Shown: positions 17,416 to 25,613, counted from the first letter of the stretch. The stretch: 64,000 nt of DNA from Terriglobia bacterium (GCA_963666975.2 CAXVYR010000004.1:1984001-2048000), one strand, 5' to 3'. Numbers and translations are program-made. Notes: generated by a model not told the origin, from the sequence alone.

Positions 17416-18975
17416 ATGACCAGCAGTGAGCATCCCGGCAGCGGGCAGCAGGCTGCCGCCGTGCTCCCCGGACCCGAGGCGTCTCCGGGTGAGGGGAGGC
17501 GACTGGCACGAAAAAAATCGCTGGCCGGTGTTTTGCTCGGCCCCGCGTTGTTCGCCGTGGCGCTGCTGCTGCCCCCTCCGGAAGGCGTTACGGAGATCGG
17601 CATGCGGTCGCTGGGCGTCTTTCTCTGGGTCATGGCCTGGTGGATCGCCGAGCCCATCCCTCTGCCCGCAACGGCCTTCCTTTCACTGGTCCTGCTGATC
17701 CTCTGCGGGGTCTTCCCTCTCGAAAGAGCCTTCGGCTTCTGGGCCCACTGGGTGAACCTTTTCCTGATCGGCGCTTGCATCATCGGCCAGGCGATGAACA
17801 TCCACGGCCTGAATAAGCGGTTCGCTTACTGGATCATGTCGCTGCGGGTGATCGGAAACAGTTCCTGGCGGTTGATGCTGGCCCTGCTGTGGGCGTGCGC
17901 CTTGCTGAGCGCCATCGCGTCCAATACGGTCTGCACGATCCTTTTCACCTCCATTGCGCTCAGTTTTATCCGGAATTTTAACATTGCCCCCCGCAGCCGG
18001 TATAGCGTGGCGCTGCTGGTTTGCGTGCCCTGGGCGGCGAGCATCGGCGGAACCGCGACGCCGGTGGGCGCAGCCGGCCATCTGTACTCGCTGGGGTTGC
18101 TGCGCGAGATGAACTTCCACGTGGGATTCCTTCCTTGGATGATGTTCGGCGTGCCCATGATGCTGATCGCCATGGCGGCGATGATGCTGGTCATCCGCCT
18201 GGTTTTCCGGCCCGAGTTTGAGGAGATTCAAGTGTCCTCCTCCTTCGCCCGCGAGGAGCTGCGGAAGATGGGGCCGATCCGCCGGGAGGAAAAAATCTCC
18301 GCCGCCGTCCTTCTGACGGCGCTGGCCCTTTGGATGCTTCCCGACCTGGCCCACTTCCTGGTGGAACCGTCGCATCCGGCGGCGCAGTGGATTCAAAACC
18401 GCCTGAGTTGGGCCGTGGTCGCCCTGCTGGCCGCGATGAGCTTGTTCATCATCCCGGTGGACTGGAAAGAAAGAAGATTCGCCATGACCTGGGACGACGC
18501 CGTGAAAGGCATTCATTGGGGAGTTCTGGCGGTCGTCGCGGGCGCGCTGGCCATTGGAACCGCGCTGAGCAGCACCGAGGTGGGACTTGGCCAGCTTTTT
18601 GTGAAAGGGATTGGGATGCTGTCGGAGTGGGGGGGAACCACGACGGCGCTGGTTGCAGCCAGCCTGGTGTTTATAGGGCTGCTGACCAACGGCGTCTCCA
18701 ATTTTGCCTCCATGAGCATTGTGATTCCCATCATGCTCTCCCTGGCTGTAGCTCCGGGGTCCGGCCTCAACCCGGTGGCGCTCACTATATGCCTGGGGCT
18801 CACCGCCTCTTGGGCATTTGCGTTGCCGTCGTCTACGCCGCTCAACGCCATTGCCTTCTCCAGCGGTATTGTGCGGACCTCGGATATGTTTCGCGGCGGA
18901 ATCATTCTGGCGCTGCTCTGCACGCTGGCCAGCATCTTGATTGCCTACCCGCTTCTCAACTGGATCTTCTCCTGA
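17416..18975 (+). CDS. SLC13/DASS sodium:anion symporter
   Basis: WWIAEPIPLPATA, ASIGGTATPVG, SNT/SNF motifs and FALPSSTPLNAIAF. Confidence 0.92.
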   Translation: MTSSEHPGSGQQAAAVLPGPEASPGEGRRLARKKSLAGVLLGPALFAVALLLPPPEGVTEIGMRSLGVFLWVMAWWIAEPIPLPATAFLSLVLLILCGVFPLERAFGFWAHWVNLFLIGACIIGQAMNIHGLNKRFAYWIMSLRVIGNSSWRLMLALLWACALLSAIASNTVCTILFTSIALSFIRNFNIAPRSRYSVALLVCVPWAASIGGTATPVGAAGHLYSLGLLREMNFHVGFLPWMMFGVPMMLIAMAAMMLVIRLVFRPEFEEIQVSSSFAREELRKMGPIRREEKISAAVLLTALALWMLPDLAHFLVEPSHPAAQWIQNRLSWAVVALLAAMSLFIIPVDWKERRFAMTWDDAVKGIHWGVLAVVAGALAIGTALSSTEVGLGQLFVKGIGMLSEWGGTTTALVAASLVFIGLLTNGVSNFASMSIVIPIMLSLAVAPGSGLNPVALTICLGLTASWAFALPSSTPLNAIAFSSGIVRTSDMFRGGIILALLCTLASILIAYPLLNWIFS

Positions 18976-19178: not shown

Positions 19179-19472
19179 AGAACAATGCCCCCTAATTGGA
19201 TTTTCGGCTGCGCCCACTCCAACAACCCGGCCATCCCAGCAAAGCCTGGCGGCAACTCATGCGAGTAGTCTGGAGCTAATCGGGTGGGTATTTTACCCAA
19301 TCCGCCGTGGCCGGGGTCCCGGAAACAACCGGCACGAAAAGGGATTGAACATGGCAAAGGACTGGAGTATATTCCATTCTACATAATAGAGGCGCAGTCT
19401 TGCGCCCCTCCCAGCAAGGGCGGAAAACTGAGGTTACGGGACCATCTCGATACTTTAGGAGGTATGGAGATT

Positions 19473-21036
19473 ATGAAGGTTATGCCACACCGAAAAGCAT
19501 TGCGCCGCGCTTGGACCATGATTGCCATGCTGACCGGAATTACGCTTCTTGCCGTGTGGATCGTCTTTCCGAAAGCACCAGACCTCCCGGGAGTAACCGC
19601 CATGCTCCAGGCCGTTTCGCCGCGACCTGCCGGGGGTCCTCGATTGATTTCCATCCAACCGTTCTCCGGAATGGAGGGAGCCATCTGCGAATGGATGCCG
19701 GCCAGCGCAACGTCGGCTACCAGCCCGGCCACTGCTCTGTGGCAGGAATCTTCATCGACCGGCGCCGCTCAAACCTCTCCAGATGATCTCAGAACTGCCA
19801 GCGATATCGAACGAGCGCCGGTGCGGGTCATCCGGGACACCTACTCTACATACAGCGCCATCGCCGTGGATACCAATTCCAATGAAGTGTACATGCAGGA
19901 TGAGAACCTGTTCGGCTTTAAGGTGTTCAACCGGATGGACAACACTCCTCCAAACGCCCAATTTACCGAGCCGAAGCGGGTTGTTTCCGGTCCCAGCACG
20001 AAGATGGAGTTTAACTGCGGCCTATATATAGACCCCAAGACGGGCGACGTGTATTCGGTGAACAACGACACCATGGACACAATGGTGGTGTTTCCTCGTG
20101 AGGCGCGTGGAAAAAATCGCGCTGGCGATCGGCAATCCCGGCGTCGTCGCTTATGACAGCAAGCGGGAAGAGGTTCTGGTTCCCAACTGAGTGGCCCACC
20201 CGCAGATCGCGGCTTTTGCCAGGCTGGCAAAAGAGAATACGATGCCCACGAGGCTGCTGGCGGGGCAAGCAACCCGCTTGAGCCGCACGATGCACGATAT
20301 CCGTTATGACGCGGTCCACGATGAATTTTTTGTAACGAATCCCTTCGCCCAGGCGATCATGGCTTTCCGAGGAGGAGCCAATGGAGAGGAAGCGCCGATT
20401 CGCATCATTCAGGGGGCGAAAACGCTGCTGGCGGGTGTTGAGGGAAATGTGTCGAGCGGTGTAGACCGTTTAGACGTCGATCCGGTCCACGATGAAATCT
20501 TCATTCCCTCCGGGGACAAGATTCTGGTGTATCCGCGGACAGGGAACGGCAATATCCCCCCGCTCCGGGTCATCCAAGGTCCGGATACAAAATTAACCAG
20601 GGCGCAATCGATTGCTGTAGATCCGGTCAATAATGTGATTGTGGCCGGCACGAACAGGCGATACAACAACGGCTCCGGATCCCTTCTGATCTTCAACCGC
20701 ACCGGAAGCGGAAACGTCAAACCCCGAGGACTCATCATGGGTCCCAGAACGGGGATCGGAAATTTGCAGCAACTCCGGGTCTATTCGCCCAAGGGCTGGA
20801 TTGTTGCGCCCCAGACCGGAGATTCTTACGGCATACTGGAGCCGGAAGGCGTTTTTATCGGCGTTTGGAGCATCAACGACGACGGGGATGTCCCACCCCG
20901 CTGGAAGCTCGGTGGACCGGGGAGCGTCATGAAGAAATCGCGCGGGATCGCGCTGAACCCCAAGAACAAAGAGCTGATTATCGCGGACATGCGGCTCAAT
21001 TCAGTCCTCACGTACTACTTCCCTGAGATCTTTTAG
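19473..21036 (+). pseudogene. membrane-anchored/exported NHL-like beta-propeller gene: frameshifting junction at ~20110 and in-frame TGA at 20188-20190 (ORFs 19473-20156 and 20191-21036)
   Basis: N-terminal TM segment. Repeated blades IAVDxxxxEVY / YDxxHDEFFV / IAVDPVNNVIV / PxRVIQGPxT. Frame 2 reads IALAIGNPGVVAYDSKREEVLVPN*VAHPQIAAF. Confidence 0.75.
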
Positions 21037-21337
21037 TTTTCCTCGCCTTCCATTGGACGGGCTGTTGGGGCCGCTGGGACCGGTTTGGAGAAGAAGTCGT
21101 CTAGGGAGGCTCGGTTGGACGCAAATGGATATATACTTTCGGTCGCCGGAGGGCTAAAAAGGAAATTCCGGTTTAGAAAGAATCTCGGCTGAGGGTGGTC
21201 GCAGATAGTTTCCAGGCGGAGGAGATTAGGAAAAGTTGCCAACAAGCCCTTCGATTTTGCCGAGAATATCCTCCGCTTTTGTTCCCCGAGGCAAAGCAAG
21301 AAGGTCCAGAGCTTCGGTCATGAAAGGAAGGAAAACA

Positions 21338-23215
21338 ATGAATTGGAAAAGGTTGCCCCTCGTCGTCTTGCTGCTCTGTGGCTGGCTGTCGTTTCTCAGC
21401 AGCACCGTCAGAGCCCAGGAACCCTCAGACATCATTCTCTACAACGGAAAGATTGTGACGGTGGATGACGATTCCTTCACCTCGAACCTGGGCACTATCG
21501 CGCAGGCTATCCACATAAAGGACGGAACGATTCTGCATGTAGGCGCCAATGCCGAGATTCGCGCCATGGCCGGACCAGGCACAAAGGTGATTGACCTGAA
21601 GGGTCGTTTCGTGATGCCGGGCATTATCAACACGCATGACCACCCGATGGACTGGGACCCGCTGAACCCGTACATCATAAGGAACGTCGTAACGGACGAT
21701 GTTCACATTGAACGGTTTTTGTGGGAGGAGCCTCCGGATGAGAAGTTGCGAAAATTTCCCCGCGTTTTGGAGGAAGCAGTCCTCGCCGCCAAACCCGGCC
21801 AGTGGATTCGAATCAGTTTGCTTCATGGGAAAGAGTATCGTTGGAGAGAAGAGGTTACCAGTTTCTTGGGCCGGCAGATTACCAAGCAGCAATTGGATAT
21901 GGCGGCGCCTAATAACCCGGTGCTCGTGCGGGCCGGTTTTGTGGGGGCGTTGGTGAACAACCGCGCGTTGGAGGAAATCAGAAAATACTGGGGAGATAAA
22001 GCCGACGCTATCTTTAGCACGCCGGAAAACGCTGGATTTGAGCAGACGGGATTTGGCGCTGTCAGTTACCGCTTCGTCGAGCCGGATATTATTTACCACA
22101 AAGACCATCCCGAAATCTGGGCCAAGATACTGGAACACGGCCTCTCGTGGCTGGCCGGTTATGGGGTGACAACCGACGGCTCGATGATGTACGCCCCGGC
22201 ACAAATTTATGGTTATCGCAAACTGGAGAAGGAAGATAGGCTGGCGATCCGCATGCCGTGGGGGTATTTCTGGCCGCCCTTTAACGAACCATTCAACGAC
22301 CCCTATTTTTTGGCGGATATCGCTAATCGTGTTGGAGAAGGCTCCGACCGCTTCTGGTTCATCGGCGCTTCCCCGATGATGACCTTCGGTTGCTCTACCT
22401 TGCCGGGCATCACTCCGGAAGCGCAGAAAAGAGAGGCCGAATGCGATGACACGCTCGAACCTGGATCGGGCATGAGCAAGTGGACCTACAATTACGTCAA
22501 AGCCGGCGGCCGCATTGCGCTCATCCATACCGAGGGGGATCAGGACATCGACTACCTGCTGGACATCGTCGAGCAGGCCAGCAAGGACGCGGGGATGACG
22601 CTAGAGGAAATTCGTGCCAAACGGCATGCATATGACCACGGGCAGATGTCCCCCCGGGACGATCAAGCGGTGCGCCTGAGAAATCTGGGGATGATCGTAG
22701 GTAACTATGACATATACCTCTGGGAAGGCAATGGCGCCAGAATCTTGAAGGACTACGGAGAAAGAGCAGCCAGCTGGGTGACTCCACGCAAAAGATTGGT
22801 CTCCAACCAAGTTGTCACTACGCTGGAGCTGGATCGACCTTTCGGCTACACCAATCTGACCATGTTCCAGGTTTTTCATACGGCGATTACCCGGAAGGAC
22901 AAGGATGGAAATGTGATTGCTCCCCAGCAAGGGGTGGACCGGCAAACCATGTTAAAGATAGCTACCACTTGGGGTTCCCAATACGTCTTGCGACAGGACA
23001 AACTCGGTTCCCTGGAGCCCGGTAAGTGGGCGGACCTGGCTGTTTTGGACAAAGATTACCTCACCATTCCCGTGGACGACATCCCCAAGCTGCAGGTGTT
23101 GATGACCCTGGTGGGCGGTAAAGTAGCCCATCTGGTTCCATCGCTGGCCCGCGAAATCGGCATGCAGGCCACGGGATCTCAGGTGGAACTCGGCGGACCG
23201 GCAGCGCAATGGTAG
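21338..23215 (+). CDS. secreted amidohydrolase (Amidohydro_3 / YtcJ-like)
   Basis: Signal peptide, ILYNGKIVTVD, DLKGRFVMPGIINTHDH and GSLEPGKWADLAVLD. Confidence 0.92.
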   Translation: MNWKRLPLVVLLLCGWLSFLSSTVRAQEPSDIILYNGKIVTVDDDSFTSNLGTIAQAIHIKDGTILHVGANAEIRAMAGPGTKVIDLKGRFVMPGIINTHDHPMDWDPLNPYIIRNVVTDDVHIERFLWEEPPDEKLRKFPRVLEEAVLAAKPGQWIRISLLHGKEYRWREEVTSFLGRQITKQQLDMAAPNNPVLVRAGFVGALVNNRALEEIRKYWGDKADAIFSTPENAGFEQTGFGAVSYRFVEPDIIYHKDHPEIWAKILEHGLSWLAGYGVTTDGSMMYAPAQIYGYRKLEKEDRLAIRMPWGYFWPPFNEPFNDPYFLADIANRVGEGSDRFWFIGASPMMTFGCSTLPGITPEAQKREAECDDTLEPGSGMSKWTYNYVKAGGRIALIHTEGDQDIDYLLDIVEQASKDAGMTLEEIRAKRHAYDHGQMSPRDDQAVRLRNLGMIVGNYDIYLWEGNGARILKDYGERAASWVTPRKRLVSNQVVTTLELDRPFGYTNLTMFQVFHTAITRKDKDGNVIAPQQGVDRQTMLKIATTWGSQYVLRQDKLGSLEPGKWADLAVLDKDYLTIPVDDIPKLQVLMTLVGGKVAHLVPSLAREIGMQATGSQVELGGPAAQW

Positions 23216-23562: not shown

Positions 23563-23961
23563 TCAGAAACCGATACCTGCGATGCGGTCCACTTGGGTCC
23601 GAACGATCAGGCGCTTCTCGCCCGGCGTTCGCCAGGGATAGTTGTCCATTCCCAAAAAACGTTTGGCGAGCATGTCGATGTGCGGCTCCGCTCCCTCGGC
23701 GGTCACCGTCGCAGTCCCGTAGAAGATCGCGTGTCCCTGCGGGTTGAGGGGATTCTGAACGGAAATCAGGATGCGCGGGTCGCGGCGCAGGTTTCGCGGC
23801 TTGACTCTCCCCTCCGCAGTGTTGAAGAGAACTTCGTTCCCGTCAACGTCCATCCAGACCATCGACATTTGCGGGCTGCCGTCTTGATTGCGCGTTACCA
23901 CATGGCCATAGGCCCTGAGCGTGAGAAATTGTTTGACTGTATCGGGAAGTTCAATCGGCAT
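23563..23961 (-). CDS. PPOX-class F420-dependent oxidoreductase
   Basis: DGSPQMSMVW, FNTAEGRVKPRNLRRDPRI. Confidence 0.9.
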   Translation of the reverse strand: MPIELPDTVKQFLTLRAYGHVVTRNQDGSPQMSMVWMDVDGNEVLFNTAEGRVKPRNLRRDPRILISVQNPLNPQGHAIFYGTATVTAEGAEPHIDMLAKRFLGMDNYPWRTPGEKRLIVRTQVDRIAGIGF

Positions 23962-24150
23962 GTGCACCACCATGGCATAAAATATCCGGGGCTTCCAGCA
24001 AGTTTATTTCATTAAAGTTTACTTCATTCGCTGGAATTTTCGATTGCAATTTTCGGGCGGCTTCAGGCTTTTCGCCTGTTTGCGTGACCCTTAAATCCTT
24101 TTCAAAGCCTTTATGACAACCCCTGCCTTCCGTCGGCGGAAGGCTCGCCG

Positions 24151-25158
24151 CTACTGATAAGAAATCACCAGTTGTTGGACGGCCGGGCTGAGATCATGCC
24201 GCTCGCTGCGCGTGAAACCGGCGTTGCCAAACATGCGCTCCAAGTCGGCAAAGCTGTAGGCATCGCCGTTCGGCGTCGTGGCCAGCATGACCAAGGGGAA
24301 GCCGGCAGAACCCCCGGGAGAGATACGGTCGTCGTTGAGCACGAACTCGATGGTCGCCGCGCGTCCTCCCGGCTGGAGCGAGACTGCCACCTTGCGCAGG
24401 AGGGTTTCGCAAGCCGGGATGTCAAAGTGATGCAGGAAGTTGGTCAGCAAGACAACATCGTAGCCGTTTCCGAACTCCACTTCGAATGCATCGCCTGCGA
24501 TGGTGTGGTAGCGGCTGGCTACTCCGGCGAGGGAGGCATTTTCCTTCGCCACTTCCAGAACGCCGGGCCAATCCAGCCCCGTTACCTCGATCTTCGGGTT
24601 CCGCTGCGCCAGCGTGATGCCGAACATCCCGTGGCCGGCGGCAATGTCGAGCACCTTGGCCTTGCTCCCTGTCTCGAACCGGAGCACGTCCGCCATCATC
24701 CGTGCCGGCAGGATCATCAGTGACGCCATGCCACGGGCGAAGTCCACCCAAACGGGATGCTCAGGACTCACCGAACCCTGCCCGTCAAGAATGGTCGTTC
24801 CCCGGCGAACCGTCTCCGCAAGCCCCTCAAAGGCGTTTTTCATCATGGGGGAAAGAAGAAATTGGAGCGCGCCTCCCAAATAGGCCCGCGAGTTTCGGTC
24901 GAGAAACATGGCGCTGTCCGGGGTCAGGGCGTAGTGGCCGTCTTGCTTGGCCAGAAATCCAGTGACCGTCAGATAATCGCACAGGATGCGCGTGCTTCGC
25001 TCGGGTGTGCCTAGCTGAGAGGAGACATCTGCGACAGTCGCCCTGTTTTTTCCAATGGCGGTGAACAGATCCAATTCGACCGCTGCTTGTAAGGCGGCCG
25101 TCCGTTGAAACGCCATGGCCGTATCGTAAAAAAGCACAGGAGACGGTTGTGTGCTCAT
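24151..25158 (-). CDS. O-methyltransferase (dimerisation domain + Methyltransf_2)
   Basis: AAVELDLFT, LDIAAGHG, AGDAF and NFLHHF. Confidence 0.9.
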   Translation of the reverse strand: MSTQPSPVLFYDTAMAFQRTAALQAAVELDLFTAIGKNRATVADVSSQLGTPERSTRILCDYLTVTGFLAKQDGHYALTPDSAMFLDRNSRAYLGGALQFLLSPMMKNAFEGLAETVRRGTTILDGQGSVSPEHPVWVDFARGMASLMILPARMMADVLRFETGSKAKVLDIAAGHGMFGITLAQRNPKIEVTGLDWPGVLEVAKENASLAGVASRYHTIAGDAFEVEFGNGYDVVLLTNFLHHFDIPACETLLRKVAVSLQPGGRAATIEFVLNDDRISPGGSAGFPLVMLATTPNGDAYSFADLERMFGNAGFTRSERHDLSPAVQQLVISYQ

Positions 25159-25613
25159 GAATCCCCTTGTCTGATTGAGATATTTCGGATGGAATTTTGA
25201 TTCCCACCTTACGTTCACACAAAATCATACGCCAGCCTGCCAGCCCTTAAATAAATTTTTCTGGAAATTTTCCGAAAAGGCTTCCGGGAAGCTTGGGCAT
25301 GCTCTGCAGGCGCAGGAAGGACCTCTTCCCCATGCCGCGCTGCCAGCCAAACGCGAGGTGGCAATCCGAGCTTGAAGCAACCAGGGGGCAGGCGTATGAT
25401 TTGGGCGCAAGCAGAATTGAACGCCGAAATTCCCAACAAAAAGACGGCAAGGAGGACGGGCATGCTCCGGCAGGTGGCTCATCCCGAGCATCGCAAGGAA
25501 GCTGACAGTTCCCCTAGAACCGGTTTCAAAAATGGTCAATTGGGGGGAACGTCATATCAAACTGGCAGATTCCTTGGGTCGGCAAACGGGAGGCCCGCAA
25601 AGGAGCAAAGACC

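Follow-up and report, generated by a model that had tools for sequence, protein, structure and literature searches.

A tandem beta-propeller family of Acidobacteriota with a predicted UGA-encoded selenocysteine inside one of its repeats, and a deletion-broken member of it

Bacterial selenocysteine (Sec) insertion sequence (SECIS) elements follow a consensus, namely a hairpin situated just 3' of the UGA codon and bearing a G in its apical loop; the prototype is the element of Escherichia coli fdhF. Here we describe a candidate system of this kind in a window of 64,000 nucleotides (nt) of DNA from a Terriglobia bacterium (GCA_963666975.2, CAXVYR010000004.1:1984001-2048000); the assembly from which it comes, hereafter G000, spans 4.23 Mb in 4 contigs and is 98.9% complete. 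Positions are window coordinates, and those elsewhere in the assembly carry a contig label. The element in question is an in-frame TGA (20188-20190, plus strand) in a gene coding for a beta-propeller protein. An earlier note on this DNA had proposed that the gene is a novel selenoprotein with a hairpin downstream of the UGA, that its product acts with an exported amidohydrolase encoded next to it, and that this particular copy may be non-functional. The comparative analysis presented here upholds the Sec codon, the choice of hairpin and the suspected loss of function, and goes against the partnership with the amidohydrolase. We consider it highly probable that the UGA of this protein family is read as Sec via the downstream hairpin, by standard bacterial recoding, and that the window copy is a damaged, deletion-broken member of the family. 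The UGA is taken as a Sec codon because the TGA is conserved, homologues have Cys at the site, the hairpin displays covariation together with a codon bias, and the carriers possess the Sec machinery.

In the window, the frame bearing the TGA (frame 1) translates as ...VEKIALAIGNPGVVAYDSKREEVLVPN-TGA(20188-20190)-VAHPQIAAFARLAKEN... and stays open down to a TAG at 21034-21036. By translation and alignment to the paralogues, the stretch before the UGA (20107-20187) comprises the end of the linker between repeats 6 and 7 followed by strands A and B of repeat 7 (…KIALAIGNPGVVAYDSKREEVLVPN), and the 3' part of the gene (20191-21036) takes in the remainder of repeat 7 from strand C on, together with repeats 8-12, and has ...YYFPEIF-TAG as its end. 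Taken alone, this 3' part is an open reading frame (ORF) of 281 amino acids (aa) starting from a GTG, which gene callers would list separately. The window's two propeller ORFs match no Pfam or NCBIfam family above cut-off, and a search of the ESM Atlas with the window ORF recovered only clusters of C-terminal fragments, i.e., 'hypothetical proteins' of 246-285 aa.

The family was searched for with the translation of 20107-21033 in which the TGA is read through. In G000 this query recovered nine full paralogue matches, the window copy included, each with exactly one internal TGA; the open frames of eight of the nine are 725-786 codons long, and that of the window copy 324. At G000:C3:768180-773066, a pair of intact members is arranged head to tail (minus strand), a tandem duplication that shows how the family expands. 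Matches were also found in 11 of the 13 other genomes of the same taxonomic family, nearly all with exactly one TGA and with open frames of about 730-850 aa; 27 genomes from ten other families of the class gave no match to the read-through query. From the 78 loci fetched, motif-anchored extraction yielded 65 distinct copies, in which the Sec-codon column reads TGA in 64 and TGC in one (locus L053). Five loci were without the motif by that extraction: alignment reveals the TGA in two of them (L036 and L077, with VAHA instead of VAHP), a third (L054) is split across two reading frames near the Sec site, and the remaining two (L013 and L055) consist of the C-terminal part only. The TGA is present in all 45 copies from 38 of the 43 further genome-contig loci (L093-L135), and eight more copies with it were counted (L036, L077, L112, two at L127, L129, L132 and L133). 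None of the copies has a TAA or TAG at the Sec position, and no copy is out of frame.

Of the 14 genomes of the taxonomic family, twelve contain a 20-letter DNA motif surrounding the TGA, with 10, 20, 32, 22, 6, 2, 15, 13, 14, 7, 15 and 11 occurrences, and two have none, the reversed-pattern control giving 0 in all; these counts are approximate, one of the ten hits in G000 (G000:C4:1633688) being a chance match and not a family member. A scan using one genome per species found the TGA-bearing family in metagenome-assembled genomes (MAGs) labelled Terriglobia, Solibacteraceae, Bryobacterales/Bryobacteraceae, Terriglobales, Acidobacteria 'gp5' and Candidatus Binatia/Binataceae. The TGA is kept even in copies with about 40% identity (from MAGs of Bryobacterales, Terriglobales, 'gp5' Acidobacteria and Binatia), the flanks of which vary (e.g., VANPR, VSVPR, VTQPR and ITSPR). 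Distant hits in MAGs of Nitrospirota, betaproteobacteria and gammaproteobacteria were rejected as members, these being generic propeller repeats that lack the Sec-bearing blade.

A protein search against 1.84 billion representatives (E up to 0.001) returned 6365 hits. Among these are many fragments stopping at query residue 462 or starting at 464, the pattern to be expected when a gene is split at the TGA. Proteins of 600-760 aa without such a break were also present, and all thirteen of the complete-looking ones inspected have Cys at the Sec position. In a second search, an alignment-based count over the full-length database homologues listed gave Cys in 115 of 116 and Trp in the remaining one (P0152, from a Joint Genome Institute (JGI) metagenome contig). 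In the latter case the gene caller possibly translated the TGA of the contig as Trp; if so, such misreading would silently introduce wrong residues into public protein sets. The earlier note had held that recoding would be supported by a conserved TGA with Cys codons in some homologues, and two separate genes by TAA, TAG or out-of-frame spacing at the junction; it is the former pattern that emerges, in the DNA copies (including the TGC of L053) and in the database proteins alike.

The Cys homologues go under the names 'beta-propeller fold lactonase family protein', 'DNA-binding beta-propeller fold protein YncE', '6-phosphogluconolactonase' or 'hypothetical protein'. The YncE and 6-phosphogluconolactonase names are unsupported, because the scores lie far under the NCBIfam cut-offs (17.6 bits against an equivalog cut-off of 400 for NF052280, and 11.8 bits against 500 for NF050136). 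In a FastTree phylogeny of 57 Sec and 55 Cys forms, from which truncated copies and every second database protein were left out, the Sec and Cys labels interleave such that six switches are needed, at least four of them forced by well-supported branches; with a midpoint root, the deepest clades are Cys.

Intact family proteins are about 750 aa long. One such paralogue (P0001, 743 aa, with 77% identity to the window copy over the shared part) meets the Pfam cut-offs for both NHL (PF01436, 34.2 bits, cut-off 20) and Lactonase (PF10282, 26.6 bits, cut-off 21.7). An AlphaFold model of the intact paralogue, computed from a 46-row alignment, has a mean predicted local distance difference test (pLDDT) score of 87.7 and a predicted template-modelling (pTM) score of 0.83. 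It shows a helix (residues 14-31) and a disordered segment (33-98) followed by twelve repeats, each made up of a short R-x-I strand and three further strands, and the predicted fold is a twelve-repeat tandem beta-propeller of the NHL/lactonase-like kind. A Foldseek search with the whole model against the PDB recovered only generic tandem WD/propeller proteins (best 2ymu; template-modelling scores of about 0.3 and 8-13% identity), none of them pointing to a function. The Sec position, 463 in the model, comes after the Asn ending strand B (457-461) and before strand C (468-473) of repeat 7; the corresponding strands of the next repeat are at 508-513 and 518-523. The translation and the model of the intact paralogue thus agree with the placement of the TGA inside a repeat unit, as originally proposed.

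Six columns are invariant in all 68 aligned sequences, namely the Sec/Cys column, D452, P467, R484, R495 and H498, and three more are kept in most (H412 in 64, Cys72 in 61 and Cys186 in 58). Between the anchor and the propeller lies a tether motif of the form ...G-E-M-C-(E/Q)-W-x-P-A-S, which holds Cys72 (61/68); in the window, the corresponding Cys codon is the TGC at 19686-19688, in the motif ICEW. As to twin-arginine export, the RR pair is found in some N-termini and absent from many. Each intact member begins with a membrane anchor or signal, continues with some 70 residues of disordered tether that hold the conserved Cys, and ends with the twelve-repeat tandem propeller; we propose that the UGA in the B-C turn of repeat 7 (motif VPN-U-V-x-x-P-Q/R-I) is decoded as Sec. 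The conservation pattern raises the possibility, which we advance only tentatively and would sooner doubt than assert, that the protein is a periplasmic enzyme in which Sec serves in catalysis, as a redox-active residue or a nucleophile, together with Arg495 and His498 (and His412) of neighboring loops, and that Cys72 may resolve a selenenylsulfide.

An arrangement that would do away with recoding is a pair of translationally coupled genes, the first coding for about 460 aa and ending at the TGA, the second coding for about 280 aa and starting at the adjacent GTG. The codon following the internal TGA is indeed GTG, a possible start, in 59 of the 64 TGA copies, and both the many database fragments that end at 462 or begin at 464 and the ESM Atlas clusters of about 270 aa could be products of such a pair. 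However, that codon is GTC in four copies and GTA in one, and a Shine-Dalgarno-like 4-mer within 18 nt upstream of the post-TGA codon was found in 1 of the 64 family copies, in line with the earlier observation that the ORF starting at 20191 has no nearby ribosome-binding site. Further, the supposed stop is TGA in 64/64, always with zero spacing and in frame, while the true terminal stops of the same copies are mixed (TAG 34, TGA 20, TAA 10). The break would also split a single blade between strands B and C and leave the second product without an export signal, and 115 of the 116 uninterrupted homologues have Cys at the very site. We therefore give the coupled pair next to no chance and retain the reading of the UGA as an internal Sec codon.

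The candidate SECIS is the hairpin CTTTTGCCA-GGC-TGGCAAAAG at 20213-20233 on the plus strand, with a stem of 9 base pairs (bp) and its first loop G (20222) located 32 nt past the A of the UGA. A small proximal hairpin, CCGC-AGATC-GCGG, lies nearer the UGA at 20200-20212. Both had been singled out earlier, the first as the main element and the second as an alternative, and family-wide comparison identifies the first as the conserved and covarying one. In a gap-free RNA alignment of 65 TGA-bearing copies across 78 columns, the RNAalifold consensus places the main helix at columns 34-39/45-50. A fuller structure of 12 pairs has 92.7% of its cells paired, against 37-55% when the 3' partners are slid as a control. 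Compensatory changes are seen in 3-4 pairs, and 0 of 500 shuffles equal the real alignment in covariation score or in the number of pairs changed on both sides. These include a C-G to U-A change in seven copies, which is synonymous (TTC to TTT plus GCG to GCA), a G-C to C-G change in three copies, which comes at the cost of two amino-acid changes (FARLA to FPRLG or FPRMG), and a C-G to A-U change in one copy. The small proximal helix (helix 1) is conserved, with 89.8% of its cells paired, and shows no pair changed on both sides.

The apex of the main hairpin, A-GGN-U, is encoded by the Arg codon of the loop, which is AGG in 61 of 64 copies as against 5.4% of the 2766 other Arg codons in the same genes. 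In the Cys copy L053 the region reads TTC CCC CGC CTT GCG, with CGC as the loop Arg codon, and the stem cannot form. Family-level covariation and codon usage together argue that the downstream stem-loop is under selection as RNA. In the proposed mechanism, this hairpin, beginning 23 nt downstream of the UGA and presenting its A-GGN-U apex 32 nt after it, would recruit SelB with Sec-tRNA(Sec). As a separate observation, the summed contig depth over 20171-20237 rises from about 9-11 to 54-79 in sequencing runs X1 and X3, and contigs break there; this is the work of the nucleotide-conserved UGA/hairpin block, which is common to many paralogues and fragments short-read assemblies at that point.

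The machinery for Sec decoding is at hand in the carriers. G000 has a tRNA-Sec gene detected by aragorn (C3:431675-431772) along with selB (371.8 bits), selA (563.5 bits) and selD (349.5 bits, TIGR00476), and its selD has an in-frame TGA of its own (G000:C4:1360322-1361257). All four of selA, selB, selD and selC, which the earlier note had suggested looking for, are thus found in the window's own genome. Among the motif-carrying genomes of the family, selA was detected in 10 of 12, with selB present in the remaining two (G001 and G007), and it was detected in 5 of 5 distant carriers. As for the two family genomes without the propeller motif, one has selA and the other does not.

This repertoire bears on another alternative, in which the UGA is read through or reassigned with no involvement of selenium, either as Trp, Gly or Cys via a suppressor or near-cognate tRNA, or with TGA as a sense codon. 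The Trp at the site in P0152 would accord with it, as would the fact that selenium insertion is itself inferred from comparison. Nevertheless, TGA terminates 20 of the 64 genes concerned, so that in these organisms the codon normally means stop, and its internal occurrence is the exception; given that each gene has a single internal TGA, there can be no general reassignment. The homologues have Cys at the site, the signature of Sec/Cys exchange, and not Trp or Gly save for P0152; tRNA-Sec, selA, selB and selD are all encoded in G000; and a structured element with an AGG bias stands just 3' of the UGA. We accordingly regard decoding without selenium as very unlikely, and Sec as the favored reading.

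The window copy itself is broken upstream of the UGA. Its 5' remnant (19473-20109, plus strand, frame 0, with an ATG at 19473) encodes a basic N-terminus, a hydrophobic anchor or signal (codons 14-32, 19512-19568), a flexible tether and the first two propeller repeats. The ORF to which it belongs (19473-20156) is in a different frame from the one bearing the UGA: the frame changes at the GGAAAAAATCG run starting at 20109, close to the position of about 20110 given in the earlier note, and beyond the junction frame 0 continues in out-of-frame codons to a TGA at 20154-20156. We compared the window by blastn with the orthologous locus L009 of G001, a genome of the same genus. The alignment falls into two blocks (689-1313/221-845 and 1309-2234/1500-2422) that overlap by 5 nt at the junction (20109-20113) and differ in offset by 659. 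Nucleotide identity is 90% in the 5' block (up to 20113) and 92% in the 3' block, and the 3' part has 93% protein identity to the orthologue. The 659 nt missing relative to the intact orthologue amount to about 220 codons, covering repeats 3-6, and since this loss is not a multiple of 3, the frame shifts.

The deletion is not an artefact of the window's assembly alone, as contigs of sequencing runs bridge the junction: a 315-nt contig identical to 19889-20203 turns up in the runs of three studies, of which one possibly supplied the window itself, and a 290-nt contig over 19889-20178 comes from a metatranscriptome library. RNA-library contigs cover 19468-19819, 19889-20178 and 20174-20387, the end of this cover at 20387 carrying no weight either way, and the window copy seems to be transcribed. 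The copy is probably a recent deletion pseudogene that should yield no functional propeller, as the earlier note had suspected. A second copy in G000 (C3:962073-964433) is also damaged, its C-terminal 30 residues being out of frame, and isolated C-terminal fragments are found at C1:7731-8129, C3:1088474-1088842 and C3:482019-482198. The damaged copy and the loose fragments suggest birth-and-death turnover of the propeller family, in which the window copy, retaining its UGA and hairpin after the frame-shifting loss of 659 nt, would be one of the pseudogenes.

We also weighed the possibility that the window copy is still functional, either because a +1 slip within the A6 run (20111-20116) rejoins the two frames, or through use of the 281-aa ORF alone. 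The junction does lie within GGAAAAAATCG, where a +1 slip at AAA-AAA would fuse the two frames (0 and 1); the UGA and its hairpin are preserved along with the 3' part, at 92% nucleotide identity to the orthologue; and the RNA-library contigs extend over all three of the stretches listed above. However, the rejoined product would be without four of the twelve repeats, i.e., a third of the propeller, and the 281-aa ORF has no export signal and starts in the middle of a blade. Neither the orthologue nor 8 paralogues share the deletion, which shows that the junction is not a conserved recoding site, and the further damaged copy and fragments speak of ongoing decay in the family. A functional window copy is hence improbable, and we suggest annotating the locus as a single gene with a Sec codon that a deletion has disrupted upstream of that codon.

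Several points weigh against the Sec reading as a whole or against parts of it. Selenium insertion is deduced from comparison of sequences. The paralogues are kin, and counts such as 64/65 are made up of non-independent events. The folding energy of 20188-20247 taken alone is unexceptional (z = -1.21, with 24 of 200 shuffles folding equally well), and a search of 19400-21300 against Rfam with E up to 10 gave nothing but two chance hits to snoRNA (small nucleolar RNA) families, with no curated SECIS model matched. The Cys forms, too, conserve the peptide (F-A-R-L-A) that the hairpin region encodes, and part of the nucleotide conservation is therefore due to constraint at the protein level; likewise, the loss of the hairpin in the Cys form is seen in a single DNA sequence (L053). 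A selA match was not found in G001 (95% complete, with 20 copies of the motif) or in G007 (78% complete); for G001, the reason may be a gap in the assembly or divergence of the gene. The suggested catalysis by Sec, its partner residues and the idea of a tether Cys derive from conservation, and the RNA-library contigs may include DNA carry-over.

Downstream of the propeller gene, on the same strand, lies the gene for the exported amidohydrolase (21338-23215; ORF 21338-23212). Its product has a signal-peptide-like N-terminus and matches Amidohydro_3 (PF07969) at 125.6 bits against a gathering cut-off of 29.7, over profile positions 1-471 of 472. Identity with SsnA, a putative selenium-metabolism amidohydrolase (TIGR03314), was rejected at 38.4 bits against 455.5, the match being confined to residues 33-102. 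Upstream of the propeller gene is one for a DASS-type (Na+:sulfate/dicarboxylate symporter family) transporter (17416-18975, plus strand; Pfam Na_sulph_symp, 158.3 bits). Both genes are given here as context. Beyond the amidohydrolase and on the opposite strand are genes for a PNPOx-like flavin protein (23563-23973) and an O-methyltransferase (24151-25218), with no evident link to the propeller.

The earlier note had the propeller acting with this amidohydrolase. A two-enzyme system would be in keeping with the adjacency of the two genes in the window, with amidohydrolase-like DNA also lying downstream at the orthologous locus of G001, and with one further G000 locus showing the same gene order, transporter - propeller - amidohydrolase (C4:2160071-2167150; groups F9 and F3 in the clustering of neighbors). 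However, G000 holds 85 paralogues (at least 500 aa) of the amidohydrolase in 4.2 Mb, which makes chance adjacency likely. Only 3 of the 9 propeller copies in G000 have an amidohydrolase within 7 kb, and none of the 43 propeller loci fetched from other genomes has one within 2.5 kb. Several of the paralogues occur in tandem runs (e.g., C2:306641-320916 and C4:2239449-2249551), and all together take up roughly 3-4% of the genome. Because of this abundance, the lack of association elsewhere and a likeness to SsnA that falls far under its cut-off, we take the amidohydrolase to be in all likelihood a neighbor and not a partner, and consider the two-enzyme system unlikely.

NCBIfam, which carries curated selenoprotein models, gave no hit above cut-off for the propeller family in its release 20.0. 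A search of the full-text literature found no bacterial propeller selenoprotein. Prokaryotic selenoprotein catalogues list 119 families or subfamilies (2026 review, PMC13188914) and 111 families (BSepDB, PMC13326102), and the main texts of both contain no mention of propeller, NHL, lactonase or Acidobacter, although a listing under another name is possible. In the deep-Sep paper, Acidobacteriota appear only as a test genome with three known selenoproteins. As far as the main texts of the catalogues and the NCBIfam release searched go, this large propeller family is not listed as a selenoprotein family.

It is conceivable, if somewhat less likely than otherwise, that several uncultured lineages of Terriglobia and related Acidobacteriota, along with some Binatia, each encode about 10-30 paralogues of a tandem-propeller Sec enzyme, in which an inter-blade Sec accompanied by invariant Arg and His residues would be serviced by a Cys of the tether. 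If true, one family would account for the bulk of a large overlooked selenoproteome in soil and groundwater, and would bring with it a new periplasmic selenium-dependent chemistry and repeated Sec/Cys switching during lineage-specific expansion. For a single Sec family to reach some ten to thirty copies per genome would be unusual; PMC12013277 and PMC13326102 put the largest bacterial selenoproteomes that they quote at 46 to 63 genes in total over all families. Gene callers split the propeller genes into two 'hypothetical proteins', and as a result both the demand for selenium and the exported proteome would be under-counted in the abundant Acidobacteriota of soil and groundwater. The many natural Sec/Cys pairs and the interleaved tree would further make it possible to examine what leads a gene to retain Sec or give it up.

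Among the closest counterparts of this family are its own Cys homologues, which share its length and double-propeller architecture, have 42-61% identity over residues 400-743 and preserve the motif N-[C]-V-x-x-P; they differ in having TGC or TGT where the Sec family has TGA, their names are automatic, and no member with a tested function was found among them. In its coding features, the family resembles bacterial selenoprotein genes with an intragenic SECIS: an in-frame UGA, a stem-loop within the coding sequence tens of nt downstream, Gs at the apex, Cys homologues, and selA, selB, selC and selD in the genome. It departs from these genes in that a second small hairpin precedes the main one, whose apex comes 32 nt past the UGA, and in that no Rfam model is matched. 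Its host protein is a beta-propeller and not a thioredoxin-fold or molybdopterin enzyme; this would contrast with the thioredoxin-like fold that PMC13188914 gives for most characterized selenoproteins. There is a further likeness to the selD of G000. While selD belongs to a known selenoprotein family and has its loop G 21 nt past the UGA, as against 32 nt in the propeller, both genes follow their in-frame TGA with a stem closed by an A-U pair, which in selD is a perfect 7-bp stem with a GGU triloop and in the propeller family an 8-9-bp stem with a GGC, GGA or GGU triloop.

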